Position numbers and translations under genes: made by a program
Shown: positions 601-24,763 of the stretch, piece by piece
Layout: every line of letters starts with the position of its first letter
Position numbering within the stretch: the stretch's first letter is position 1
Notes under the pieces: generated by a model
Told to the model about the DNA's origin: nothing
Database searches by the model: none
Seen by the model: the letters and a program-made list of their open reading frames with translations, nothing else
Source: Macrostomum lignano
Taxonomy: Eukaryota
DNA: 64,000 nt
Direction: 5' to 3'
Assembly: GCA_002269645.1 (NCBI GenBank)
Contig: NIVC01003749.1
Coordinates: 1-64,000 of the forward strand

Positions 601-2717
601 ATTCATCACGCCTGTTGGTTTCACACTAGACCAGGCAGTGTTATGGGCGTCGCATCTGACGATTAGCTTCCTGTCATGAAGGTTATGATGTAACCACGCT
701 CTGTAACTTTTTCAAAAGTGCCTCCTATCGCCGTGCACCCCCTGCACAGAGCTGTTGAGACTCGGCCAGGTCTTTCACCAGGCCTGGAGACTCCCGCTCT
801 GCTGCACCCCCTGCTGCTTTGGCTCCGTCTCCCCTGCCGCCACACTTACCTTTCCGGAGCTCCCCTCCCTCTCTGTACCTCCCCCTCTACCCTATCTCTT
901 CTGCTTTCCGCCCTATTCTTCGTGTACTTTTCCTGTCTCCCCTCTTTTTGCCCGTTTCCGCACTATTTTCCTGCGCTGTCCCCCTTCTCTGCGTCTACTT
1001 ACAGTATTTTGTGTGTTCACCGTCACCCTATCCCTTCTCAAACTCCCAAACGGTGACGCAAGTCGTGTGACCCCTTCTTCCCCTCGATGACTCATCGATG
1101 ACTCATCCTCTTGCGCAACCTTTTCTCATGCTATTGTTCTCCTCCCCAAATTTCTCATGCGACACCCACCCCACCTCCGATTCTATTGTTCTCGTTTTTT
1201 ATTCTTTTGTTCTCTTTACCCCCACGAATTATCAGATTTTCTCCGATTTTCTCTTTCTATTGTTCTCGTTTTCGCACCTAATTATCACCTTTTCTCCAAT
1301 GTTTGCTTTTCTATTGTTCTCGATTCTCCCCAATTATCCCCGTTTTCCAATTCCTTTGTTCTCGACCCCAGCCCCATTGTTCTCAATGTTTGCTTGCGCA
1401 ACACTTTCTCGACCTCCCGCTGCGCCAATTATCCCCCCGCCTCACCTCCGGATTGCGCAATTCTCCATTTCTCATGTTGCTATGCCGTTCTCATGCTTCT
1501 CATCATGACTCATTCTGACGTCATTCTGCCGGCAGCCAATCAGAGAGAGGGAGTCATGGAAACGACCTTGGAGCGGCGGCTGGGATGGCTATATAAGGAA
1601 GCGATTTTCGGCATGAGAATCCTCAACTCTCGCTTCGGGCCGGTCTCCTCAGACTGTGTTCCTGCTCTTCCTACTGTGGACTTGCTGTCAGACCTTGATC
1701 TGACCTATTCGTCTATAGGACGAACCTCTGCCGGTCCGCGGTCTGATACCGCCAAGTTACCTCTGCTCCCCAAGTAAGCTCGCCTATCGGCCAGCGGTCT
1801 GATACCGCCCAGCATCATCAGCATCGCCTGATCTACATCAGCGCCTCGTCGCTTCAGCGCATCGCCGCTTCACCATCTGCCTGACTGCAGCCTACAGCCG
1901 TCCCCGGTCACTCCATCGCTCTCTCTCTCTCTGTGCAGCTGCCGGTAAGTTCCTGTTACTAATTTCTGCTTAATTGCCTCTGCTTATCCGGGGTTTGCCT
2001 ATTTTCCATTGCTTAATTAGAAAGCTGAGCCAATTGTGATACCGTATCTTTTGCTGTACTTTTACTCAATAGTGAAGCCGCCTAATTGCCTGATTATTTT
2101 CCTAAGGGCCTAATTATTAACTATTAACTAACCTCATCATTATTCACTCTTTCACCATCATTTCACTCATGGCTTGCTAAGCCTTTCTCCCGGGGTGGCG
2201 AAGCATAAGGAAGTTTGGGTAAGCTAATGGCCTCTTCCCGTGCAAAGCCCACCTGTGAGTGCGTGCTGCGGGGCCGTGTGTGCGTGCAGTAGAGTGATTA
2301 GCGAGTCTTGGCACAGAATGGCAGTAGGAAGGTTGCAACCCCATGCTAACACGTCCCTTCGCCCTGAGAAATCTAAACTATAGACAGTACATGTTCGCCT
2401 CATACTACTCTTAGTAATCAAAGTCGCAAGTCAGCCTCGCTCACAGCCACAAAGGATCCCCTGCTGAGAAATCCTCCAGATTGAGCCCAGAGTTCCCGAT
2501 CATGCCCCAAGCAGAGTCCCTGTACTCGGCTGCATGTGTCTCCCCTGTTAGCCTAAATCCCCTGGTAACCAATCCAGGCGGGGCTCTAGCCTCGAGAGGT
2601 CTGGTAGTAAGATCCAGGTGCGCCAGCTCACATAGAGTGGTGGCAGCCACTCGGTCATACTATGACCGAGTGACCAACTATTGCACCTTGGCTACAGGTG
2701 GGGCCATGTGGGTCCTT

Positions 2718-3245
2718 ACTACGTAATGTGCAGAAACTGCCGGGTTTTGGAGGTGAGGTGGGTGTCAGAGCCAATGCAAATTCAACGCCTATCTAAATAC
2801 ATTAGACCTCTTCTAATTGGTCCAGACCCTGTAAGTCATTATGAGACATTTATGCATGTAACTCTCATGTAAATCTAATTATACATGTAATCAGTGTACA
2901 TTCCTAATTGTGTCGTACAGAAGCGACGACCAGTACTATATAGTACGCATAATTAGCGCTTCACCGTAGCAGTTGTACGCAGAAGCGCTCGCGCGCCCAG
3001 CCCCGCACAATGCAGCATTGGTGTACGCAGAATTAACTGTACATATTAACTGTCCATATACTCAAAATTGGCAGAATTAACGCGCGCCCACCCACCCCAT
3101 AACTGTTTATATACCAAACTTCGTGTACGCGCAGAATTGTAGCGCCCACTCATCCAAGAAAATATTATGTGACCCCACAAAATTGGCGGCCCCCCCCGCA
3201 CGCGCGTAGGCATGATGAGTCAGCCGCTGTAAATCGCTGCTGTCC
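2718..3245 (+). repeat. Left terminal inverted repeat (about 528 bp)
   Basis: 2718-3025 is the reverse complement of 10707-11014 with 3 mismatches in 308 bp. The match resumes after a variable internal repeat block and ends at ...GTAAATCGCTGCTGTCC (3245 and 10329). Confidence 0.95.
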
Positions 3246-3415
3246 GTACTGTTATATCCACTCCTTTCATACTTCACCCCTCTAGAATTCTGTCCTCCGT
3301 AGCCACTCCGGGGCAATTACGTCATCCCCAATCCCTCTCCCAGAGTCAAATAAGTTTTCAAAAGGCGTATATATATTAACACAAAAAGCCGGCCGAGCTT
3401 TGATACGTATACGAT

Positions 3416-3919
3416 TTATTTAGCATACACAATTGGGTGATAACCCAAAACGTTTGAATAATAGCGAGCAGGAGCATTTTGCAAACAGTTTACAATCAAG
3501 TATGAGTAGGGGTCGCGAGTAGCATATCCTCATACGTTTTGACTAAACTTTTTGGATTAGTGGGGACAAGCTGCCTTGCAATATGAGACACTGTGCTGGC
3601 ATCCCGTACATTGCGGAATAAAACAAGGTAGTTCGAATTGAGCGACTGAGTTCGGTGCTCCTTACCCTTTGCAAACAGGTTTTGCACAAGATACCAAAGT
3701 CGGAACCCCACGTGGGAGACTTTGCGCGTGAAAAAAAGTTGTAAAAGCGCCACTCTTTTTTATGGCATGCATTTGGTCGTCGACGACAAGTAGAATATTT
3801 GGTTCAGGGACATTTTGTTCAGGGTCAAATGTACACGAACGAAAATTTACAGGGTACGGCAATTCAAACAGTTCAGGATCCGGATAGTGGCCAAACCAGT
3901 CTACGCGAATCGGCGTAGA
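3416..3919 (-). pseudogene. A32/FtsK-like packaging ATPase; Walker A absent; two frameshifts
   Basis: Joined frames read TPIRVDWF...NILLVVDDQM (Walker B)...FFTRKVSH...WYLVQNLFAKGKEHRTQSLNSNYLVLFRNVRD...IARQL...YEDATRDPYSYLIV...HPIVYAK*. Frameshifts at the 7-T run near 3735 and an AT duplication near 3530. AATAAA overlaps the stop. Confidence 0.88.
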
Positions 3920-4262
3920 CTAAAAAAAATGGTTTTTCAGCCACAAATATTACATGAGCCCCGCAGGTCACACTTAGCGGATGCTGTACAGGATGCCGGT
4001 TCATGGCCACCTCCACAGGGACATACTTTGCGATCCACAACTTTAATAAATCTGGCACAGGATCGATACACAAGGGGTCAAAAAATGTCACGCTCTCATC
4101 GGCATGAAGACAAATCAAAGCCCAGTGAGTGCCTGGTAGATTGCCAGTGTCAAAGTTAATCACGTATGCAGCAGGATAAACAGGCTGCGGAATCCTGTCA
4201 ACTGGTGTTACTCGAACAGGGACAGGTAGTATTAGACGTTCTAATATATCTAGACTATTCAT
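3873..4262 (-). CDS. Adenain-like (Polinton PRO) cysteine protease, C-terminus probably truncated
   Basis: Catalytic motifs in the expected order: YVINFD...GTHW (His), FFDPL (Asp), PVQHP (Gln), TCGAH (Cys). Confidence 0.9.
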   Translation of the reverse strand: MNSLDILERLILPVPVRVTPVDRIPQPVYPAAYVINFDTGNLPGTHWALICLHADESVTFFDPLCIDPVPDLLKLWIAKYVPVEVAMNRHPVQHPLSVTCGAHVIFVAEKPFFLVYADSRRLVWPLSGS

Positions 4263-4309
4263 ATCGGCATGAATATGGCCGTTATTCGGGAATAAAAAGA
4301 TGTTTGTTT

Positions 4310-5592
4310 CTACACGTAGTCTAGAATAACCTAACGACCGCGAGTGATTTGCACAGTATTGTCAAAGTAGCCAAACACCAACACGTTGATTCCTGCAGCT
4401 AAAGCAGCAGAAAACTTTATTTGTAGCGTCAGATTCCCTCGCTCGCGAGGCATGCTATGCCCGCCCAGCTCCATGTCGGGCATGAGATTCCAGGCGAAGA
4501 AGCAGTAGCCAGCTCCATAGTCAGAATATGATACGTCAATATCCAGGTCCCGATTCATCTTTCCTAGGCTTTTTAGCAGCATGGCATACTCGCGAGCATA
4601 GTTATGAACACCGAATCGAGGAGTAAACGGTTGTCCACACAGACTGACTCCGTCCTTATACAGAGCGACACTGTCTGCCCAAACGGTTCAAAATTAAACG
4701 GGTTATGTGTAGCCACACCGTTGTATGCGCCGCTGTTCACCATGCCAACAACCACTAGTTTAGGCTTTTGTTCAGGAAATATATTATTGATTGACATGTC
4801 CCGAACACCGCCAGCCACTGAAGTATTGTGCACAACAAGTCGCTCAATCGGATAGATTGCATTCTGTTTGCCTAGTTGTTCTTCAATCTCCAATGCCAAT
4901 TGGGGGTTTGCCTTGACGCGGCGCACATGTAGTTTGGCACTCTCGAGTACCAGCCGCGCATCAACCCCGTCTGCGTGGTTTTCCAGAACGAAGCCGGAAT
5001 TGTGCATGGTCAGCGTAATTACCATATCAGTGTATGGCAGTAGCATTCGGTCGTTGGTAACAAAAAAGTCTAAACTCAGAGGTCCATAAAGGTGAAAGGT
5101 GCGTGAGTTTGCCGCCATCGCCTTGCGAGCTACAAAGCCAGGATTTCCAACCACAGCCATTTGACCTCCAGCGTCCTTTGCGTAGCCCATCATTCTCAGT
5201 TGATTGGTTTTTGAATCGTGTCCGTAATTCAAACACGTGCGAATATAGGCCTTGTAAGCGTGGTTGTTATTGCTCGACTCTACGTGTGTCCCGTTGATTG
5301 TCAACGTGACGTTTTTAAACATGCTTTCAAGGACGTAATTGACCGGCGCAACATTCGAATCAGCAGCAAGATTTGTGCCATTAGACTGCTTAACGCGGGC
5401 CTTTATCTCGAGGTCAATGTCGTTAAGATCGATAAACGTCTCACGACCGACAATCCTAAATTCGACCACGCTGGCATTTTCAACACTGGACACAGGGTGA
5501 ACTTCTTCAGTGGTAGCGCTAATTGCAGCAATTTGGTGTGCGCGAGGAGCAAATAGCTCGAATTCCGACTTTGTACACAGGCACTCAGTCAT
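4310..5592 (-). pseudogene. Major capsid protein (Polinton PY, double jelly-roll), about 425 codons, one frameshift and one premature stop
   Basis: N-terminus KSEFELF...VEFRIVGRETFIDL, middle LYGPLSLDFF and PKLVVVGMV...YNG...NPFNF. A frameshift near 4670 restores VALYKDG...PFTPRF...YAREYAMLLKSLG...GYCFFAWNL...GNLTLQIKF. A TAG at 4331-4333 interrupts the ending R*VILDYV*. Confidence 0.93.
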
Positions 5593-5635
5593 TTTTCTTT
5601 CAACAGCGGCTTAGTGTGATGCTCTAATAGACAGA

Positions 5636-6004
5636 TCAGTTATTGGCACGGGTTTTTTTATTTATAGAGTCGAAAATATCAGAATGCTGCAGTCTTTTTC
5701 TCGTTTTTTTGTTAGTCATCTTTCTTCGTCTTTGTCTGCCGCTACCTCGTTGTGCGACTGTGTCCTTGAAAGCATCTTTAGCTGCCTGGACAGAGTTACG
5801 CAATGTCGCTTCTTTCAAGTTCCCGCCTTGATCGAGTGTGTCGCTAACTGTTGTAGCTAGGGCTCGTGTTCCGTGGCGAAGAATATTTTTGCCAAAACTC
5901 TTTAAAATTGGCAGGGCAAATCGGGCAATGCTGCCAAACAGGCCGTTGCCGCGCTGTGCACCGGAAAATACCGGTAAAGCTCCTCCGATCAAGATTGAAG
6001 GCAT
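5636..6004 (-). CDS. Small basic virion/core protein with amphipathic helix and adenain-type site
   Basis: 122 aa: LIGG|A site, QRGNGLFGSIARFALPILKSFGK amphipathic segment, second QRGSG and an R/K-rich C-terminus. Position between the capsid genes is typical of Polinton-type elements. Confidence 0.75.
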   Translation of the reverse strand: MPSILIGGALPVFSGAQRGNGLFGSIARFALPILKSFGKNILRHGTRALATTVSDTLDQGGNLKEATLRNSVQAAKDAFKDTVAQRGSGRQRRRKMTNKKTRKRLQHSDIFDSINKKTRANN

Positions 6005-6048
6005 ATTGTCGATCAGTTGCTACCTTTTTTTCGTGAAAACTTCTTTAT

Positions 6049-6390
6049 TTATAGCTTAATTTCACGAATGTTGATCGATAAAACAGTTTTGCCTCGAAGA
6101 ATCCGATCCATTAACTTGCCCATATCGTCACAGATTTGCACCTCAATGGTTTTGAATGGGTGTTTCACCAACGGTAAGTAGGATGGATTGACAAACTCGT
6201 AGTACTCTCGTTCGCCGTATACCTTTTCATTCAAAGGAATTGCCCCAAGCAGGGGGACTTTGACGTCTCCAACAATGGCAGAGTCGACAATATTTGAATA
6301 GATGTACATAGTTTGTACACCATTTGTTAAATCGATTGGTCGTTTAGCGGTCTTTGGAGTTTCATTGAAAAATCTTTGCGAAAGAAGTAG
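6049..6390 (-). pseudogene. Minor capsid (penton-like, Polinton PX) C-terminal half only
   Basis: MYIYSNIVDSAIVGDVKVPLLGAIP...YYEFVNPSYLPL...IEVQICDDMGK...GKTVLSINIR matches the Polinton minor capsid C-terminus. The N-terminal half is missing. Confidence 0.85.
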
Positions 6391-7280
6391 AATTGACCCT
6401 CGATTTGTTCTCCAGATAGGTCGGAAATCCGATAAAAATGAGGTGGTCCCGGGCATACTTGAGACACAACGTAAACTTCTTCGCTGTACATATCGTATGC
6501 TTCCTTGTCAAAGGCTCGACGAGATTTTGAAATTCTGACGAAGTCCCCTTCTTAGTAAACTGGTTCATCATATTCAGGATCCTTGTAGAGCTTTTCCCAC
6601 AATTCTTTTTGGTTGTGCAGACCGACACTCGAAGGTTTCATTTCAATAGTAGAGTTTACTGTGTTGTTGTAACTTTTAACCAATATTGGTAAATAGTCGA
6701 TCCAGCGCCACGTGTTTTTATGCTCAAAGTAGCGAGCTAAACGTTTTCGGAAAGTTCTAATTAACCTTTCAGCCATATTTGCCTTGTATACAGAGTTTGT
6801 ACTGTACATTTTGATATTATGGGCTTTCAGTAAGTTCTGCATGCGATTGTTATAAAACTCGGTACCTCGATCAACGTGTAGATATAAAGGCTCAATAGGG
6901 AAGTCTTTGATCATACTTTCAAAAGCCTTTGGAGTGTCGCTTTTCAATTTTATTGGCTGGCAAAAAGCCAATTTACTAAGCACGTCAATTGCAACTAGAA
7001 TATATCGATGACCATCATTCCATTGTTCGTATCGTGACATGTCCATCAAATCCGCTTGCACAGTTTCCATGAAGCCTCCTGACATTACTTTTCCGGTTCG
7101 GAAATTTCTTTTGACCCTCTTGTGCCGGGTGTAGCTCGCTTGAGCTTTCAGCCATTCGTCGGTTTGGCGTCTCGTCAGGGAGGGGACCAGCCGTTTGGCC
7201 TCCTGATATACACGGGCAGCATTTGTAAAAGCGGCGTCCCCCTGTTCGTACACTCTCCGAAGAGCGGTTTTCACCCTCAT
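6388..7280 (-). pseudogene. Polinton-type rve (DDE) integrase with premature stop; chromodomain missing
   Basis: QADLMDM (D), LHVDRGTEF (D), KANMAERLIRT (E). After the TAA at 6552-6554 the frame continues EGDFVRISKSRRAFDK...SEEVYVV...YRISDLSGEQIEGQFY, the usual post-catalytic domain. Confidence 0.93.
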
Positions 7281-7413
7281 TCGCAACTAGATTCGATGCA
7301 CAGCATGAGTAATTACACTTGAACTCCACAGACGGTTTGTCTGAGCAAAGCTTTGAAGTTACAGCTGCGGCACCCATGATCCAAAAACAGATTATAAATC
7401 ATGAAAATGATTT

Positions 7414-8068
7414 CTATTTATAGTTTTTTAACGTCTCGTATTTTACTGCTGGTTTCTGCCGCCTCTTTGGTTCGCGAAGTTGGTATGAAGCATGCCTGTA
7501 GGCATCGCTGCCACGATCTTCATATTTTTTAATTTCATTCAGGCCACTGGCTTGGTCTTTGTGGAAGTCGTTGTGGAAATCACTAGTTCCAATTGCTTGC
7601 TCGACTAAAAAATCGTCTCGATCCGGATCCGTGCCGACTTCTTTTTTCACACTGATTTCTTCTTGTTGGCGTCGTCCTAGTGGAGCTTTTGCAATATCTG
7701 CCTCTTCAGCCAGGGCCCAAAAAGCGGTACTATATTTCGGGCTTGGGCGGTCGCGCCTTTCATTAGATTTAGTCTCCTTCAGTATATCGAAAATATTGCT
7801 TCCTGGCCAGGTTCTTCCATCAAATACAATTTCCCACGACTTGTTGTACTCCAAATTTGGGTATCTTTCTGTCAGCATGTCCCAAATACGTTGTTGTCGT
7901 TCAGGAAAACGAATATTCTTCTTTTGCTTGATCTGACTTAGTTTATTTTGGAGTTGAGTGTTGTATTTAATGAGTTTTTCATATTCTGTTTTAGATACAA
8001 TTTCTCGGGGTGCGCCTTGACTTAGTCTATTAAATTCTTCTTCTGGTACAACAACGTATTTATCTCAT
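7414..8068 (-). pseudogene. Conserved Polinton accessory protein (GSNI-D motif type), frameshift just after the start codon
   Basis: ATG at 8068 followed by a 1-nt shift, then KYVVVPEEEF...coiled-coil...WEIVFDGRTWPGSNIFDIL. The frame is open from about 8060 to the stop at 7414. Confidence 0.65.
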
Positions 8069-8069
8069 T

Positions 8070-8498
8070 TTAGCGACCGAGTAGTCCGCCAAACAGGCTT
8101 GATATTAGCGGTGCAGCAACAGATGCAAGGATGGGTAGAAAGCCACCGACTTGAGGATTCGAGAGAAGCATATTCTTCTTCCTATTTATAGACAATTTTG
8201 TGTCTGCCAATTCACGCAACGATCTTCTGTATCGCTTTAATCGCAGATACTGTTTCGGAGAAAGATCGATATTTCCCCGGAGCACGTTGTGACTCAATTC
8301 ACAGAGACAATGAATCAGTTCCTTGCCTGCACCTCGAATAATTGCCCGCCGAAGAGCGGGACGGGCTTTGGCGAGCTCTGCGAGCTCGCCGCGACAAGAA
8401 CATAGTCTGGAGATTCCGTTTGTCCTTTTGTTTAGCACAAAGATGTTGGTTGCAGTGCACCGCAATTTATGCACAATATATTTATAGACAACTTTCAT
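8070..8498 (-). CDS. Conserved small Polinton protein ending in QxGGFL plus amphipathic helix; start uncertain (8498, or 8403 with a frameshift)
   Basis: LAKARPALRRAII...LIHCLCELSHNVLRGNIDLS...LRELA...QVGGFLPILASVAAPLISSLFGG, a pattern typical of Maverick/adintovirus small virion proteins. Confidence 0.75.
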   Translation of the reverse strand: MKVVYKYIVHKLRCTATNIFVLNKRTNGISRLCSCRGELAELAKARPALRRAIIRGAGKELIHCLCELSHNVLRGNIDLSPKQYLRLKRYRRSLRELADTKLSINRKKNMLLSNPQVGGFLPILASVAAPLISSLFGGLLGR

Positions 8499-8567
8499 AG
8501 CAGTTTGTACGTACCTACAAATTCAGTACAGTAGTAAAACAGTAAAGTTACGCAACAGCTACATGGA

Positions 8568-9068
8568 TTAGACATGCAAAACGCTAGTCACATGATCGTA
8601 CATTTGACAGAGCTCTTTAAAGTTTCGTATTCCAAGGAAAACAAGGCGGCCATTCTTTCCGCATAATAAACATTTAGCCTTGCGAAATGGAGACTTTATT
8701 ACTATTCCATTGAAAACTTCGCACTCCCACTTCACCCAGCGGGACCCGGAGTATGCAATTTGGAAAAAATTTGGCCATCTGTCTACTTCAGCGCGGTAAG
8801 TACTAGTGGTAACAACAACAGAAATTGGTTTACATTGAGGAAAAAGACGCAAAACTTGGTTGACTGAGCGACAACCGAATACAATTGCAGACAAAGAACG
8901 CTGAAAAAAGTTGATTGTACATCTTCCTATTCGCAAATTGAAAAGATTCGCAAAAATTCGCAAATTCGCTCTTGGTCTGCAAAATGTCCGTGCGCTCGCC
9001 CAGTCCAAGTCAGGCATGCGGCTCCATTTCGCGCAAAACACTCGGTTCACACACTCGACGTTCTGCAA
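8568..9068 (-). CDS. TATA-binding-protein-like (TBP fold, two repeats) protein inside the Polinton-like element
   Basis: Repeat 2 IAYSGSRWVKWECEVFNGIVIK...KCLLCGKNGRLVFLGIRNFKELCQMYDHVTSVL aligns to TBP [22 protein letters not shown]...[32 protein letters not shown]. Repeat 1 NRVFCAKWSRMPDL...VFGCRS aligns to NIVSTVNLGCKLDL...CTGAKS. Starts: TTG at 9068, ATG at 9017, or splicing. Confidence 0.7.
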   Translation of the reverse strand: MQNVECVNRVFCAKWSRMPDLDWASARTFCRPRANLRIFANLFNLRIGRCTINFFQRSLSAIVFGCRSVNQVLRLFPQCKPISVVVTTSTYRAEVDRWPNFFQIAYSGSRWVKWECEVFNGIVIKSPFRKAKCLLCGKNGRLVFLGIRNFKELCQMYDHVTSVLHV

Positions 9069-9171
9069 GTAGATTTTTCGGCAGTTTTTACTTCCTATCC
9101 TTCTTGAGGGCTTTCGACCGCTTCTTTATTGGTTCGTTGGCTGCTACTACTTTCGATTGATGCTGTCGCTT

Positions 9172-9806
9172 TCAGGCCTGATTTTTAGGCACCTTTGGCT
9201 GCTTCTCCTTGACAAGCTTTGGTGGTTTCTTTGCTTTCTTGCTTACTTTCTTGGTGCCTACCTTGATTTTTGGAGGTGGCGTCCAATAGCAACGATCGAA
9301 TGCCTGTTTGGCTTCTTCGACAAACTGTAGCTGTTGAATTTTTGGCATTGCGGTCAAAACAGCGTCTCGAATCACGGCCGTATCGAGCGTGAACAGAATC
9401 CTGTAGTAGCCGCTCTTGTTTTTGTAATCCTCTGATCTACAGGCAGTCCGTTTTGGTCGTAAATTTTAAAGTCGTGAGCCAACCCAAACGCTGCACTGTC
9501 ACCTCCAAACGCTGGGTTGTAGCCCAGCAGAGCTAGACTTTCGCTGGAAAGGTGCTCCGCCACAGTGTTGAAAGTGTAGGGTATGCAGCTCTCAATGTGT
9601 TTTTGTGCAATGATGATGAATTCGCGACCTTCGTTGTCAGTACGCACGCCCTTGACGATCAAAACAGGGACCGCATTGGCCAAGTAGAGAGGTCCCTGTT
9701 CGTCATATTCAATGTCAAACGTTTCAACCCCGTTGAAGCTCGGACCTCGCGGTTTGAGCGCCAGCAGCTCTCGCTTGACGCAGTTGAAGTCTTGCACTGT
9801 CTCCAT
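9172..9806 (-). CDS. Hypothetical element protein(s): ORFs 9372-9806 and 9172-9375, probably one frameshifted gene with a Lys-rich tail
   Basis: TATA-like GTATATAAG near 9870 lies upstream of ATG 9806. A 1-nt shift near 9430 joins FKIYDQNGLPVD to SEDYKNKSGYYRILFTLDTAVIRDAVL. Confidence 0.55.
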
Positions 9807-10328
9807 GTCTCTTGTCTGTTTAGAAAAATTTGCAGGTACGGGCGCTTGCAGATGCTCTGGGCTGGTGCTTATATACCCGAGAGTCTCAATATTTTTTTGT
9901 TTTAATTACACGATAACGAGCTTTTTACGGTGTCGTCGTTATCAGGAATTCCGGAAAAAATGAACCTTTTGTTCCTATTTTCGGGTGCTGGCGTTGGAGG
10001 TGTGCTGAAATCCTTGCTCCAAGTTGCTGGTAGTTCAAGCTTTGGCGGCCTGATCCTCGTGCTTTGGCAACCAAAAAATTTCTTGTCAAAAACTGCGTTG
10101 TCTAGACGATTGGGGTGTTAATTGAGCTTGGTGAATTTAGAGAACCGCCGAGAATCCAAATTTTCTTTATTTATAGTTTGCTGTCTGAACAAAAATGACC
10201 TGGCATTTACAAGAATATTTTCAGACCTTGATGACGTGTCTGGCTATAAAGTTAGCATTGTGTCTCGACCGGGTTGTTGCGTAACCCTGCTGCAGGTAGC
10301 TATAGTGAGCCGCGCAGGGCAAAGGGGT

Positions 10329-11014
10329 GGACAGCAGCGATTTACAGCGGCTGACTCATCATGCCTCCGCGCGCGCGGGGGGCCGCCAATTAATTGTGAG
10401 GGGCGACAGAATATTTTCTTGGATGGGTGGGCGCTACAATTCTGCGTGTACACAAATTTTGGGTATGATCGAACAGTTATGGGGTGGGCGGGCGCTACAA
10501 TTCTGCGTGTACACAAATTTTGGGTATGATCGAACAGTTATGGGGTGGGCGGGCGCTACAATTCTGCGCGTACACCAATTTTGGGTGTATATATGGACAG
10601 TAAATATGGACAAGTAATAATATGGACAATTATGGGGTGGGTGGACGCCCTAATTCTGCGTACACCAATTTTAGGTATATGGACAGTTATGGGTGGGTGG
10701 GTACGCTACACCAATGCTGCATTGTGCGGGGCTGGGCGCGCGCGCGCTTCTGCGTACAACTGCTACGGTGAAGCGCTAATTATGCGTACTATATTGTACT
10801 GGTCGTCGCTTCTATACGACACAATTAGGAATGTACACTGATTACATGTATAATTAGATTTACATGAGAGTTACATGCATAAATGTCTCATAATGACTTA
10901 CAGGGTCTGGACCAATTAGAAGAGGTCTAATGTATTTAGATAGGCGTTGAATTTGCATTGGCTCTGACACCCACCTCACCTCCAAAACCCGGCAGTTTCT
11001 GCACATTACGTAGT
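10329..11014 (-). repeat. Right terminal inverted repeat (about 686 bp)
   Basis: Reverse complement of the left TIR, longer because of extra copies of a GTGTAC(A/G)CGCAGAATTGTAGCGCCC...CCCCATAACTG unit. Confidence 0.95.
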
Positions 11015-11020
11015 GTCCTT

Positions 11021-12600: not shown

Positions 12601-13579
12601 AAACTGGCGTAAATTGGCGTTGGTAAGTGGTGTGTTGGCGTCAGTAAAAAATGAAGTATTTTCGTAGCTGCCGAAGAGAAGATGGTTTTGGAAACAGACA
12701 TTGTATTTTGAGCGCTCGTCTTTGAAAGACTCTGGCTCGGTGCCGAATGCCCCGAGCTCTGGGTTCATAGAGGAAGCGGATTTAAGAGGGCAGGTTGTCT
12801 CAGAGGAAGTGGTAATCGCACATTCCAGAGAGGAGGGGAGATCTTTCACGTTATGGCAGTCAGAGATGTCAGTGGGGTGGGGAGGTCAAGATCCCAAAGG
12901 CCGTAGCTCAGCTTCGAGCTTTACTCCCACATCCCCATTCCTACAGATCCCCACTCCCACATCCCCACTCCTGTAGATCCCCTACCCTATAGATCCTCAC
13001 TCCTTCAGATCCCCTATCCCAAATCCACACTCACAGAATCCCGATGAAGTGTATATATAGTCTGGTTCCTTAAAGTTCCCTTGATCATATCTATTCAATG
13101 CTTACCGAACATCTCTGACCGTCTCTCTCGCTTAAGAATTAGTGGCTCAGCCAGGATTTGTTTAGAATGCCAGAAGCATTAGAAGCGGGGGCTTTTGTTG
13201 GAGTTGGAGATGAAGGAAGATGAGGAAGATGAGAAACTTATTTGTCTATGGCAATACGTACAGTGTATTCGCGAGTCGCTAAGCTGCGAAATCAAAAATA
13301 TGCTTAAGCGGTGCATAAGGTCTCAGCAAAACCGGAGTATTACACCATTTTACCTCCTATTTTTAACAAAGTCTTGTTCAAAAGAAACAAGCAGAACTTC
13401 AATTCAAACACTAAGAAATATCAGCCATTGCGGAAGTTCAAATCAAACAAAGTCCTTTTCTATTGAAGTTCTGCTTGTTTCTTTTGAACGGGACTTTGTT
13501 CAATGTGGGAGGTAAAATGGTGTTATCGTCTGGCCTAATCACTGAACAAACAACAACTTTAGCAGCAGGGGCTTTAGCA

Positions 13580-14822
13580 GCAAAGGCTTTAGCACCAGAG
13601 GCTTTAGCACCAGAGGCTTTAGCACCAGAGGCGCCAGCACCAGAGGCTTTAGCACCAGAGGCTTTAGCACCAGAGGCTTTAGCACCAGAGGCTTTAGCAC
13701 CAGAGGCTTTAGCACCAGAGGCTTTAGCACCAGAGGCTTTAGCACCAGAGGCTTTAGCACCAGAGGCGCCAGCACCAGAGGCTTTAGCACCAGAGGCGCC
13801 AGCACCAGAGGCGCCAGCACCAGAGGCGCCAGCACCAGAGGCGCCAGCACCAGAGGCGCCAGCACCAGAGGCGCCAGCACCAGAGGCGCCAGCACCAGAG
13901 GCGCCAGCACCAGAGGCGCCAGCACCAGAGGCGCCAGCACCAGAGGCGCCAGCACCAGAGGCGCCAGCACCAGAGGCGCCAGCACCAGAGGCGCCAGCAC
14001 CAGAGGCGCCAGCACCAGAGGCGCCAGCACCAGAGGCGCCAGCACCAGAGGCGCCAGCACCAGAGGCGCCAGCACCAGAGGCGCCAGCACCAGAGGCGCC
14101 AGCACCAGAGGCGCCAGCACCAGAGGCGCCAGCACCAGAGGCGCCAGCACCAGAGGCGCCAGCACCAGAGGCGCCAGCACCAGAGGCGCCAGCACCAGAG
14201 GCGCCAGCACCAGAGGCGCCAGCACCAGAGGCGCCAGCACCAGAGGCGCCAGCACCAGAGGCGCCAGCACCAGAGGCGCCAGCACCAGAGGCGCCAGCAC
14301 CAGAGGCGCCAGCACCAGAGGCGCCAGCACCAGAGGCGCCAGCACCAGAGGCGCCAGCACCAGAGGCGCCAGCACCAGAGGCGCCAGCACCAGAGGCGCC
14401 AGCACCAGAGGCGCCAGCACCAGAGGCGCCAGCACCAGAGGCGCCAGCACCAGAGGCGCCAGCACCAGAGGCGCCAGCACCAGAGGCGCCAGCACCAGAG
14501 GCGCCAGCACCAGAGGCGCCAGCACCAGAGGCGCCAGCACCAGAGGCGCCAGCACCAGAGGCGCCAGCACCAGAGGCGCCAGCACCAGAGGCGCCAGCAC
14601 CAGAGGCGCCAGCACCAGAGGCGCCAGCACCAGAGGCGCCAGCACCAGAGGCGCCAGCACCAGAGGCGCCAGCACCAGAGGCGCCAGCACCAGAGGCGCC
14701 AGCACCAGAGGCGCCAGCACCAGAGGCGCCAGCACCAGAGGCGCCAGCACCAGAGGCGCCAGCACCAGAGGCGCCAGCACCAGAGGCGCCAGCACCTGAG
14801 GCGCCAGCACCAGAGGCGCCAG
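13580..14822 (+). repeat. 15-bp tandem array (GCACCAGAGGCGCCA)n, about 83 copies
   Basis: Near-perfect 15-mers with a GCTTTA variant at the left end and no indels seen. Confidence 0.95.
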
Positions 14823-15339
14823 TACCAGAGACGCCAAATCTATACTGCAAAGAAGCGCCATATAATGCAGCCACCCGATCGTTGGCGCCCCAGCGCAACC
14901 GGGGTGCTCACACCTACTCATAAATACAGAATCCCTCATTTTCTCTACTTGCAGTGCAGAGGCCGCATAGCCAACCATAAGCATTCTCACAATTACAGAT
15001 AAGCGTTGTGTTCAGGCGGAGTATAACTACGGTACATTTAACCAGATTACTTTTAATGCACATCAATTGACTAAAACAACTGCCTAGCGACGTACTCGAA
15101 AAGTATAATTTTGTAGTTACTTTCAGCTCGAAGGAATCTGATTTTAATAAAGGTAAGCTTATAATCAATATACACATCTAAAATCATATATACGAGTATA
15201 AAGGTATTTTCGACAAAATTCCCAAGGCTTACGAATAAGTTTATGACGCTAAAAACAGTTAGCATTTTTGTATTTGACTGTCTCTGTGTCGAGAGTACAG
15301 TGAGGTGTCTAGAGGGTACACTGGCACTGGCATTCAATG

Positions 15340-17330: not shown

Positions 17331-17482
17331 GCATTATCAGATAACCAAAGAAAGGCCGCGTATTTTACATCTGTAGTTTGGCTACACATCAGTAAGGTGT
17401 ACACATTATCAATAAAACATTTGCAACGGCCAAAATATCCAATTTTCAGACTGCACCGCGTGAGTTACCCATCGAATTCACC

Positions 17483-18592
17483 ATGCCATTGATAAGACTG
17501 ACAAAGCCAGTGCTGTTCCTGCTGGCGCTACTGCTGCTGGCCCTGGGCACGCATCGAAAGATCTTCAGCGATCGCGGCCATTCTGTCATTTCTCCAAGCC
17601 GCAGCGCCATGAAAACAAAGGACACGGTGCCAGCGACTGTTGACAACCCGCTACTGTCGGGTGCCTGCGGCGCCTACAGTGAGCTCCGCAGCGTCAACTT
17701 TCTGCACAAGTCCATCAGCGAGAGCATCTGCGAAGGCGTCGCCGCCTACACCATCGTGGACAGCGCGTTTCCGCTTTGCCGACTCAAGCAGCACCTGCCG
17801 CTGGTCCTCACCGAAGGCGTCAGAGCTGCAAGCGTGCAGACCTTCATCAGAAGCCCCCTCACCCAGAGAAACGTCTCCAGCTTCGTCTACTCGAGTCCCG
17901 ACTTCATCTCGACCAGCATCCGCAAAGAGCACATCTTCGAGGAGAGGAACGTCCGTAACATGCAGCGAATCATTCAGAAGCTGGCCGCCAAGTCGCCCGT
18001 CACCTTTGTGGACGTCGGCTCGAACATCGGCGTGTTCACCCTGTCGATGCTCGATCTCGGAGTGCCCGTCATCGCGCTGGATGCGAACATCCGCAACTTG
18101 ATTCGAATCAAGCTGTCAGCCGAGGCGGTTGAGCCGCCTCACAAGCTGCACCTGCTGTGGAACTTCGTCAGCAGGCAGGTGTCGCTCATGTACCTGAACT
18201 TTCCGAAGGATTGCAACATCGGCGGCGCTACCAAGTTCGGCAGGGCCGTCGTCGACACGATCCCAGTTATGTCGTCGACCGCGGACTCCATCGTGCCGCT
18301 TATCGACACCAAGCTGGTCGTGTTGAAGGTCGACATCGAAGGAGGCGAAGGCGAGTTCTTCAAGAGCGCGAAGAAGCTGTTCGAAAGCTTCACAATTCCC
18401 GTGGTGCACATGGAGTGGCTGAAGAAGCACATGAGCGAGGAGGAGCGCCAGTTCATGATCAGCTTCTTCGCTGGGAGGCGCTACAGCCCGAGGACCATGA
18501 AAGATCTAACCAAGTTGATAAACATCAGCCACACAGGGTATCAGGGAGACGACCTCATTTGGGTGCACAAGAACTTTGAAGGTGGAATATGA
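17483..18592 (+). CDS. FkbM-family (Methyltransf_21-like) SAM-dependent methyltransferase, intronless, N-terminal signal anchor
   Basis: 369 aa, GC-rich. FVDVGSNIGVFTL (motif I), IALDAN, LKVDIEGGE, VHMEW; hydrophobic N-terminus VLFLLALLLLAL. Confidence 0.88.
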   Translation: MPLIRLTKPVLFLLALLLLALGTHRKIFSDRGHSVISPSRSAMKTKDTVPATVDNPLLSGACGAYSELRSVNFLHKSISESICEGVAAYTIVDSAFPLCRLKQHLPLVLTEGVRAASVQTFIRSPLTQRNVSSFVYSSPDFISTSIRKEHIFEERNVRNMQRIIQKLAAKSPVTFVDVGSNIGVFTLSMLDLGVPVIALDANIRNLIRIKLSAEAVEPPHKLHLLWNFVSRQVSLMYLNFPKDCNIGGATKFGRAVVDTIPVMSSTADSIVPLIDTKLVVLKVDIEGGEGEFFKSAKKLFESFTIPVVHMEWLKKHMSEEERQFMISFFAGRRYSPRTMKDLTKLINISHTGYQGDDLIWVHKNFEGGI

Positions 18593-22816: not shown

Positions 22817-23937
22817 CTACAGTCTGCATGTAAGAATCGGTAGAATCCTGGAAATTGCCATGGAGTTATCCATTAACATCTTGTGAGTGTAGCTCAGGTG
22901 CATGAACTTGTGAACTGTGTAAGAACTGTTCGGTATTTTCTTTGTCTCAAAGTTGGTAGCATTGAGCCTTTTGCAGTGCTGCTGCTTCATCTTGGGAAGA
23001 CTCCCCAGATTCTTTGCCCGGCAAAGTTTCTTCAGCCTTTTTGGAATCCATGCCACATCCCAGAGGGCTGGAAGGCGTCTGCCTCGGCCAGCATGTTGCC
23101 GCACCAGTCCACAGGTCGGTCGCTCTGCTCCAGTGCCGTGTAATTCTTGTAGAATGTGTGCAGCATTCTGGGTCCCGTGACGTACACCGCATCGCGATGA
23201 CCTCTCTTGGTCTTGTTGGCCCAATTCTGCTCAAACCATGTCGGCCAGGTCTTCAGCACGAAGCTCAGGAAGCTGTGATTCGCTCGGCTCATCATCACCG
23301 CATTTGAAATCAGTGCCGGAAGATTGAACGTGAAAACTGCGTGCTCAGTAGGCTCCTGACTCCACACTGCTGACTCACAGTCGAAGTTCGGAGTCAGCCC
23401 CGCTCCCTGAAGCTGCGACGGTCTCAGCAGCGGTGTCGGATCTCGAAGCAGCTCCACATCCGTGTCGACGTACAGACCGCCGACGTGGTGCAGCACGACC
23501 AGACGGCCGATGTCCGATCGCTCCAGCCCGTTGACCAGCTTGCGGTAGCTTTGAACAAGGTACGGATAGTGCTTCGAGATGAGCTCGGAGATCTGCTTGT
23601 CGTCCCAATGCATGAAGTGCCAGGCCTGGATTCGGCTACCGTTACTCAGCCGTGCCCAGGAGCGCACAATGGGAATCAGCTTGGCTGGCACTCGGCCGTC
23701 TTTGCTGGTCCAGTGCACCAGCGGCGGGATGGAGTCCGGGAACTGGGAGGGCAGCTCGCCGCAAGGCAGCCCGTCGTGCAACGGTAGGGACGTCGGCGTA
23801 CGTGCAGCAACCTCCTGAGCTTTACATTTATAGGTACGAGTCGTTTGCGCAATGAAATACGCTGTTCTAACTGACACGAATGTCAGGACAATTAAAATTA
23901 GCAGACGCTTTTGCTTCCATGTTATAATGCCGAGCAT
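22817..23937 (-). CDS. GT32/DXD-family glycosyltransferase (OCH1/SUR1-like), intronless type II membrane protein, one frameshift near 23065
   Basis: IPPLVHWTSK, FMHWDD, ERSDIGRLVVLHHVGGLYVDTD (DXD), SNAVMMSRANHSF, TGPRML. One extra C at CAGCCC|TCTGG joins ORF 23032-23937 to the frame ending HKFMHLSY...TCRL* at 22817. Confidence 0.85.
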
Positions 23938-24763
23938 GTCGCATGTGACAAATTCGGCAATTGTGCTCAGTGAGAGAGCCTAATTAATCTTTTCTACTTC
24001 AGACGCAGAAGACGCCTGAGACAAATCATGCACGGGCCTTACGTAGTACACGCGGTTATGCCTGTTAAGCATCATGGCCCGTGCTGCCAGGGCAAACAGG
24101 CTGTGTTTGGGGGTTGGTCGCTCTGGGTTCTGCTTACAATCCCACGGAGTATCAGTTGGGGTGGCTGTTCGCCCGCGCTCACGCTCGCCCGGACTAACAT
24201 GCTCGTAGCATAAAGCCACTCTGTCAGTGCTGTAATCTGCAGATTGACAGTCAATACACCCATAACAAACATATACGAGATAGCTTATAACACAGAAAAT
24301 AAATTAATAACTTCATATCTTAATATTGTATTTTCATTCCATTCGTTAATATGATAAGAGCATGAAAGATATTGTAGCAAACAGCTGGACATAAAGATGA
24401 CAGCTCACAGGGAAAAACTGCACAAGATTTAGCAGTAATTTTCTACGCGATTCAACCAAAAATGAAATGAAGAACGCAATTAAATCGTTTCGAAAATTGA
24501 AGTGAATTGAAAATTAAAATTTTAAACGGTTCCCATACGGACAGAGGGGCAACAGTCACACAAAGCATAAGTAGTATAGAGCGAGTATATAAATATTGTT
24601 ACAGTTGAACATTATTACAAAAATAACTTTTTTTTCACAGATCTGATAAACTGCGCCAAGAACATACAGCAGAATATTAAAAACTGGATCGGATACAAAC
24701 ACAAAAATATTTCAATTTATACAAGTAAATTGGTAGGAGAAAACAAGTGGAGACTTTGAAAAT

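Follow-up and report, generated by a model that had tools for sequence, protein, structure and literature searches.

The window analysed here, the whole 64,000-nucleotide stretch of Macrostomum lignano DNA at positions 1 to 64,000 of contig NIVC01003749.1 (assembly GCA_002269645.1), contains at 2718-11014 a Polinton-like element that is a young, dead copy of a structural segment. We consider it probable that this segment belongs to a complementary two-segment system, in which the Polinton gene set is split over two separately integrating elements, S and R, present as two lineages, A and B, in one host. The S elements (families S-A, which includes the window element, and S-B) carry capsid and integrase genes, the R elements (families R-A and R-B) carry a protein-primed DNA polymerase (pPolB), and S and R together add up to a single Polinton gene complement, exactly and without overlap. 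The observations behind the two-segment reading are this gene content, the target-site duplications (TSDs) of 6 bp on both elements, their ACT ends, a pool of terminal 27-mers shared pairwise, signs of selection, splice joints in R, and searches in which no joined form was found. More tentatively, and without quite committing ourselves, we suggest a bipartite double-jelly-roll animal DNA virus with two separately packaged and integrating segments and two co-diverged lineages, the first ~27 nt of each segment being drawn from a shared, rapidly shuffled pool of ends.

S elements and their lack of a polymerase

At least some 24 close S-A loci were present in the genome (30 of 189 candidates scored), and 21 of them were retrieved. 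Leaving aside C49, the twin of the window element, the 20 S-A copies measured 9.6-14.4 kb from end to end, ten of them 10.0-10.3 kb; 16 of the 20 had a perfect 6-bp TSD, and two of the 20 shared one site. The family form of about 10.2 kb contains integrase, penton, major capsid protein (MCP), protease and ATPase genes. The S-B MCP is 87-88% identical to that of S-A and the gene order is the same; unlike S-A, S-B carries a 117-aa open reading frame (ORF; L067:534-884) and a Fic-domain gene (L067:922-1698; PF02661, E 6.6e-14). Seven of about 28 S-B loci were retrieved, and the five with both ends were 10.3-10.6 kb long, with a TSD in four of the five.

To search for pPolB we used 31 queries, including the cognate R type, against 29 S elements (28 copies and the window element, in 56 stretches), and none of the 29 contained it. 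The only matches were to the ATPase gene, by way of a gene model in the database in which pPolB and ATPase are fused, plus a 44-residue piece in an insertion carried by C150; in the window element, which the initial annotation had described as lacking pPolB, the ATPase-gene match was the only one. As a positive control, an outside relative matched every one of 13 R loci (E<=1e-78); fourteen in-genome polymerases used as queries do not detect the R type, and the 31-query set was used instead. With an R-type polymerase exon, all 134 candidates were scored and gave 128 matches, none of them inside an S element, the nearest on a shared contig lying ~39 kb away.

The initial annotation had taken the window element for either a deletion derivative or a polymerase-less lineage, and both parts held, since the copy is a deletion derivative and its ~10.2-kb parent family itself lacks pPolB; a satellite of a complete Polinton became less likely than a two-part system, because a polymerase was found on a capsid-less, integrase-less family with matching ends. 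It had also asked whether short copies recur at different TSD-flanked sites, and the ~10.2-kb family stands at many such sites. The outcome that it had named as contrary, 15-20-kb copies with the same terminal inverted repeats (TIRs) and pPolB, did not appear in either search. That outcome would have made the element an ordinary decayed Maverick, the result of a one-off deletion in a 15-20-kb pPolB-bearing element, and the window copy does have three gaps and does stand at one insertion site. Yet pPolB is absent from all 20 other S-A and 7 S-B copies retrieved, and the complete Polintons of this genome have other ends, with only 27-30% identity to S in MCP and ~35% in integrase. The S copy sizes, the TSD sites and the pPolB searches refute the decayed-Maverick reading unless a joined copy appears, and we give it scarcely any credence.

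The S genes are continuous, and many copies have frame breaks. Between S-A and S-B the nonsynonymous rate (dN) was well below the synonymous rate (dS) in all ten shared genes compared, with dN and dS of 0.065 and 1.76 for MCP, 0.077 and 1.45 for ATPase and 0.125 and 1.27 for integrase, and with proportions of nonsynonymous (pN) and synonymous (pS) differences of 0.13 and 0.8 for the protease. We conclude from these values that a capsid module without a polymerase has long been kept under selection. They also bear on the proposal that S and R are a two-part intracellular transposon pair that uses integrase and polymerase in trans and no longer forms particles. This proposal agrees with the frame breaks, with the lack of particle evidence in our material, and with the statement in PMC8097293 that animal Maverick virions have not been observed; but among the S genes MCP, ATPase and protease rank with those most constrained between A and B, identity among young S-B MCP copies is 98.6-100%, and we regard a particle-free pair as very improbable.

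R elements as separate carriers of the polymerase

A PF03175 profile search of the genome found pPolB in at least 119 places (91 of 974 candidates scored), and we read the surroundings of ten loci taken to represent different groups. Three were complete Polintons, four had no TIR pair in the retrieved stretch, and three were TIR elements of 9-10 kb that start with ACTAC, have a 6-bp TSD and show no match to S proteins. The three complete Polintons are 16.4-16.8 kb long and start with AGTAGT, and their pPolB has no significant similarity to the R polymerase (E>=0.015). With different ends, no TIR similarity and an unrelated pPolB, these AGT-ended elements were rejected as parent or helper of S and R. 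A third, young pPolB class (92-97% alike; for example G000:C506:479960) is unrelated to both other types, and no TIR pair was found within 20-24 kb at C506 and C925.

None of the 16 R loci retrieved (16/16) contained a match to an S protein; one MCP match beside an R locus belongs to a different Polinton family into which the R element had inserted. Among 103 frames of two complete R copies, Pfam gave only PF03175 and one weak unrelated match, and no integrase. All nine R copies with both ends had a 6-bp TSD (9/9). The polymerase is the only gene common to R-A and R-B; its exonuclease, VSR-like insert and motifs A, B and C lie across several exons, and the R-A and R-B genes are broken at the same places. 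GT-AG borders were checked for two introns. Read alignment, which covered R elements only, found joints that skip three R introns, seen in two, three and one study, in runs that are, at a guess, RNA; these joints were absent from a fourth, unclassified run. The R-A and R-B polymerases are ~63% identical, with pN of 0.21-0.26 and pS of 0.70-0.75; judged from these substitution patterns and those above, both S and R genes are under purifying selection.

Proteins in UniRef that are 95-100% identical to the R polymerase are labelled Macrostomum lignano; after these, identity drops to 26-35% in the closest relatives. One relative, the nematode protein P0072, is annotated as a fusion with an ATPase that is a homologue of the one in S.

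Several further features of R and pPolB loci were seen. R-B has a PC4-like ORF (L096:282-779; weak, E 0.034) that is unmatched in R-A, and the C491 variant adds a 376-aa orphan ORF (L098:6298-7425). At L120 (G000:C4072:13486-14540) an R-B element adjoins an MCP gene that is truncated and belongs to another Polinton family. A degraded pPolB at G000:C234:57207-58677, 44-47% identical to the R type, is possibly an older relative.

Shared ends and the two-segment interpretation

Both S and R have the unusual ACT ends, and comparison of these ends linked the two kinds of element. Within the TIR, nt 6-27 vary in blocks, giving 25 distinct 27-mers among 40 S-A ends, and nt 28-58 are almost fixed; in 23 of 33 S and R elements the two ends match each other. 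Averaged over nt 6-27, identity was 0.64 for R-A with S-A versus 0.31 for R-A with S-B, and 0.53 for R-B with S-B versus 0.25 for R-B with S-A. The nearest S class was its own partner for every end compared, S-A for 10 of 10 R-A ends and S-B for 13 of 13 R-B ends. Among the matches listed, at least four exact 27-mers, counted by eye, were common to S-A and R-A and at least six to S-B and B-type R; this comparison covered the best 100 of 133 R-A-type and the best 100 of 239 R-B-type matches and included some listed ends of unverified content. The first 31 nt of the window element are identical to the R-A-type end at G000:C1438:113262. Such a shared pool of ends suggests exchange during co-replication.

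Genome-wide, the end patterns matched 133 times for the R-A type, 72 for the S-A type, a count that includes some non-coding hybrids, 55 for the S-B type and 239 for the R-B type; reversed-pattern controls gave 0, 0, 0 and 9 matches for R-A, S-A, S-B and R-B, respectively. Two apparent hybrids were found, one of 4.7 kb with an R-A-type and an S-A-type end (G000:C1438:113262-117991) and one of 11.9 kb in which an R-B-type end closes an S-B element (C150:69198-81089).

Two more unusual arrangements of these ends were noted. A 7.6-kb element at G000:C356:258144-265773 has S-A TIRs, no ORF of 120 aa, inverted flanks and an inner mirror-image region ~73% like R-A non-coding DNA; it appears to be either an S/R hybrid of the fold-back type or a palindrome created in the assembly, and similar end pairs occur at C816, C1588 and C1705. 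At G000:C1485:44228-62496, R-A-type end pairs are nested, one element within another.

From these results, and from what is established about Polintons and protein priming, we propose the following scheme for the two-segment system. Segment S, of ~10.2-10.5 kb, would supply the retrovirus-like (rve) integrase, penton, MCP, protease, packaging ATPase and small core proteins, and segment R, of ~9-10 kb, an intron-split, VSR-type protein-primed DNA polymerase. The R mRNA would be spliced in the nucleus, and the terminal-protein-primed polymerase would then copy both segments from their shared ends. The S integrase would insert both segments, R included because R has TSDs but no integrase match. 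The S capsids would package the segments, alone or together, their summed size of ~19-20 kb being a normal one for a Polinton. While the segments co-replicate, end variants could be exchanged between them; one conceivable route is template switching in the first ~30 nt, perhaps, as we would guess, near the T-run at nt 28-31.

Several points weigh against this interpretation. The sharing of ends between S and R is confined to ~31 terminal nt and the remaining TIR differs, and nt 28-50 are common crosswise to S-A and R-B, which blurs the pairing. R outnumbers S, as a parasite might, both in polymerase versus integrase loci (~40 R-A and ~56 R-B versus 28 and 28) and in ends (133 + 239 versus 72 + 55). 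These locus counts overstate insertions, because the assembly duplicates sites (C49 is the window site, and C251 is C3051). The R TSD at C1300 is a weak one, lying inside an ACT microsatellite. With synonymous sites near saturation, the substitution values are compatible with an A/B split of equal age in S and R without proving it. A joined S+R ancestor was not found in the genome and the nearest outside pPolBs are 26-35% identical, so that descent by one split is something we infer; complementation and virions are likewise inferred. Finally, some long end pairs (C56, 18.4 kb; C126, 14.4 kb; C583/C485, 19-22 kb) are known only to be without listed matches to S-type MCP, integrase and ORF250.

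Some of these points would also fit an independent origin, in which a satellite without polymerase and a pPolB element of the transpoviron or plasmid kind converged on shared ends and act in trans as mutualists, without being halves of a single ancestral genome. The difference between the TIRs beyond ~31-50 nt and the unequal S and R copy numbers agree with it, as do the polymerase gene being all that R-A and R-B have in common and the introns of R versus the continuous genes of S. In contrast, the S and R sets sum to one Polinton complement without overlap, and the pairing is repeated in two lineages. Moreover, P0072 is annotated as a nematode relative of the R polymerase fused to a homologue of the S ATPase, and therefore both types sit together in one-piece elements. 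We consider independent origins unlikely.

Less probable still is that S and R both parasitise an unseen, one-piece, ACT-ended helper, either exogenous or absent from the assembly, that makes up for what each is missing. The assembly is possibly incomplete, the few long end pairs have interiors not yet read, and S-like proteins of 57-81% identity occur in public contigs whose context is out of reach. A complete helper would relax selection, yet the S capsid genes and the R polymerase are conserved, and the fully scored exon search (134/134 candidates) placed none of its 128 matches within an S element. We retain the two-segment system as the likely explanation.

The window element and known systems

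The initial annotation had described a compact 8.3-kb element with integrase, protease and capsid genes, intact ends and TSD, and all genes in one direction, and these features were confirmed. The element is 8,297 bp long (2718-11014), runs from ACTAC to GTAGT and is flanked by the TSD GTCCTT at 2712-2717 and 11015-11020. Its TIR cores, 2718-3025 on the plus strand and 10707-11014 on the minus strand, are 308 nt each and 99% complementary; in the left core, as among copies generally, nt 6-27 are strongly variable, and nt 28-58 are nearly invariant in S-A. Imperfect TIR extensions reach ~3245 on the left and ~10329 on the right, the latter containing subterminal 61-bp repeats at 10416-10690 (plus strand).

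Every recognisable gene lies on the minus strand, and in gene order they begin with a remnant of ORF170 with a local duplication (9822-10120), situated at the third gap. It is followed by ORF250 (9079-9806), which is family-specific and broken in this copy; a small basic protein that has a GGF motif close to its end (8070-8423), presumably pX-like or a core protein; and ORF216 (7414-8064), which has no assigned function and is conserved in S-B at 52% identity. The rve integrase (6386-7280; PF00665, E 1.7e-8) has a frame change near 6,552 and has lost its C-terminal part in the second gap, which also took the 5' part of the minor capsid protein that we take to be the penton (3' part, 6049-6384). 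Next come a 122-aa small basic protein, presumably core or pVI-like (5636-6004), and the F54H12.2-like MCP (4331-5592), which in this copy falls into two frames near 4,680 and is judged to be a double jelly roll by the neighbours that a homologue of 81% identity has in the Atlas. The series ends with an adenain-like maturation protease (3932-4262, 77% cover), so labelled on His/Asp/Cys motifs and lacking its 3' end in the first gap, and a 3' remnant of the packaging ATPase (approximately 3419-3914, 37% cover), in two frames, with Walker B retained and the Walker A-bearing 5' part in the first gap.

In place of the two internal deletions first described, comparison with family copies gave three gaps, of ~277 bp at 3914-3932, ~1,025 bp at 6384-6386 and ~440 bp with a local duplication near 9822-10077, and the ATPase remnant had to be added to the gene list. 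There are several frame breaks besides. The only twin of the window element, C49, has flanks 99.9% identical, and thus a single insertion site accounts for the 8.3-kb form. The window copy is unable to supply capsid, ATPase or integrase and retains its cis ends.

Searches run on the protease and penton in Pfam, PHROGs and PDB were uninformative; the protease had no match among PDB sequences, and ten S-element proteins had none in PHROGs. For a replicase of another type (helicase, AEP, PolA or Rep) there was no Pfam or PHROGs match in the S ORFs scanned, and ORF250, ORF216 and ORF170 are without a label. A guess that ORF250 is a single-stranded DNA (ssDNA)-binding protein was unsupported, the Atlas being blank, the AlphaFold pLDDT 38 and the seven profile matches all unnamed. 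The single-sequence MCP model (pLDDT 35) was unusable for fold comparison. Public contigs hold relatives of the S-type MCP (80-81%) and of ORF250 (57-65%, one more distant), and S-like elements may therefore exist beyond the Macrostomum genome; no S-related locus was found among the viral or metagenome contigs searched, and a sequencing-run search with the S element gave no RNA run among those listed. Elsewhere in the window, a long 15-bp tandem array at 13467-14900 with open frames on both strands is probably a minisatellite, and open frames of 398 codons (17396-18592, plus strand) and 315 codons (23032-23979, minus strand) lie outside the element.

S resembles Polintons and adintoviruses (F54H12.2-type MCP, VSR-type pPolB2) in its TIRs, 6-bp TSD, rve integrase, MCP and ATPase, and in penton and protease by motifs only. 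The VSR-like insert of the R polymerase resembles the pPolB2 of marine nematodes and molluscs (10.1101/2023.08.22.554363). Intact vertebrate Mavericks are described as one-piece and intronless, with (AGT)2…(ACT)2 or (AG)3…(CT)3 ends (PMC8097293). In contrast, the S and R genes are spread over two TIR elements with ACT…AGT ends, and the R polymerase has introns. An autonomous, one-piece Polinton has 5'-AG ends, a length of 15-20 kb, and integrase and pPolB enclosed by one TIR pair; the window element has ACTAC ends and 8.3 kb (family ~10.2 kb). The window element works like one Polinton segment and fails as an autonomous Polinton.

Complementary gene sets on separate molecules with a common terminal sequence, as found in S and R, are the mark of a segmented virus. 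The bidnaviruses (Bombyx mori bidensovirus) and Drosophila Vesanto virus have segmented linear ssDNA genomes with matching termini and a Polinton-derived pPolB, and bidnavirus segments are packed separately (PMC4061559, PMC8502044, PMC8363768). S and R resemble them in matching termini and pPolB. They differ in that the bidnavirus type has ssDNA, a parvovirus-type capsid, a superfamily 3 (SF3) helicase and no integrase, whereas S and R, known here from genes alone, keep a double-jelly-roll module with MCP, ATPase and integrase and both integrate with 6-bp TSDs. R, a pPolB-type element with no capsid module, is like transpovirons and free Polisuviricotina replicase modules, which lack the morphogenetic module (PMC11161782; 10.64898/2026.10.13.758929); the latter source, a 2026 preprint, describes pPolB as consistently paired with DDE integrases. 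Those elements parasitise giant viruses or carry their own DDE integrase, whereas R has no integrase match, shows neither a fusion of pPolB with a superfamily 1 (SF1) helicase nor its own DDE transposase (only PF03175 in the 103 frames of two copies), and is paired, in an animal nucleus, with a reciprocal element that lacks a polymerase. The linear killer and helper plasmids of yeast, pGKL1 and pGKL2, like S and R, are two protein-primed linear DNAs that rely on each other (PMC13348850). They differ in being cytoplasmic, without capsid and without integration. Each of the two carries its own polymerase.

In the literature searched, which lay outside subscription journals, Repbase and supplements, we found neither a bipartite animal Polinton nor a capsid-bearing one that lacks a polymerase, and no paper on Polintons of Macrostomum; the parts themselves are known, and their arrangement in two pieces appears new for Polintons. 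By definition a Polinton has polymerase and integrase in the same element, and screens ask for the pair, so that a split lineage goes unseen: S alone resembles a decayed Maverick, and R alone an orphan, intron-broken polymerase gene. The hypervariable shared ends would be a natural record of which molecules replicated together. If the two-segment reading is true, genome segmentation would extend to double-jelly-roll integrating viruses, and free DNA is predicted to occur in two size classes whose ends are known. Whether animal Polintons form particles and act in trans, both long-standing questions, could then be addressed by observation in what seems to be a laboratory flatworm. The bipartite virus suggested above would offer a living model of a pPolB genome becoming segmented, as on the way to bidnaviruses.

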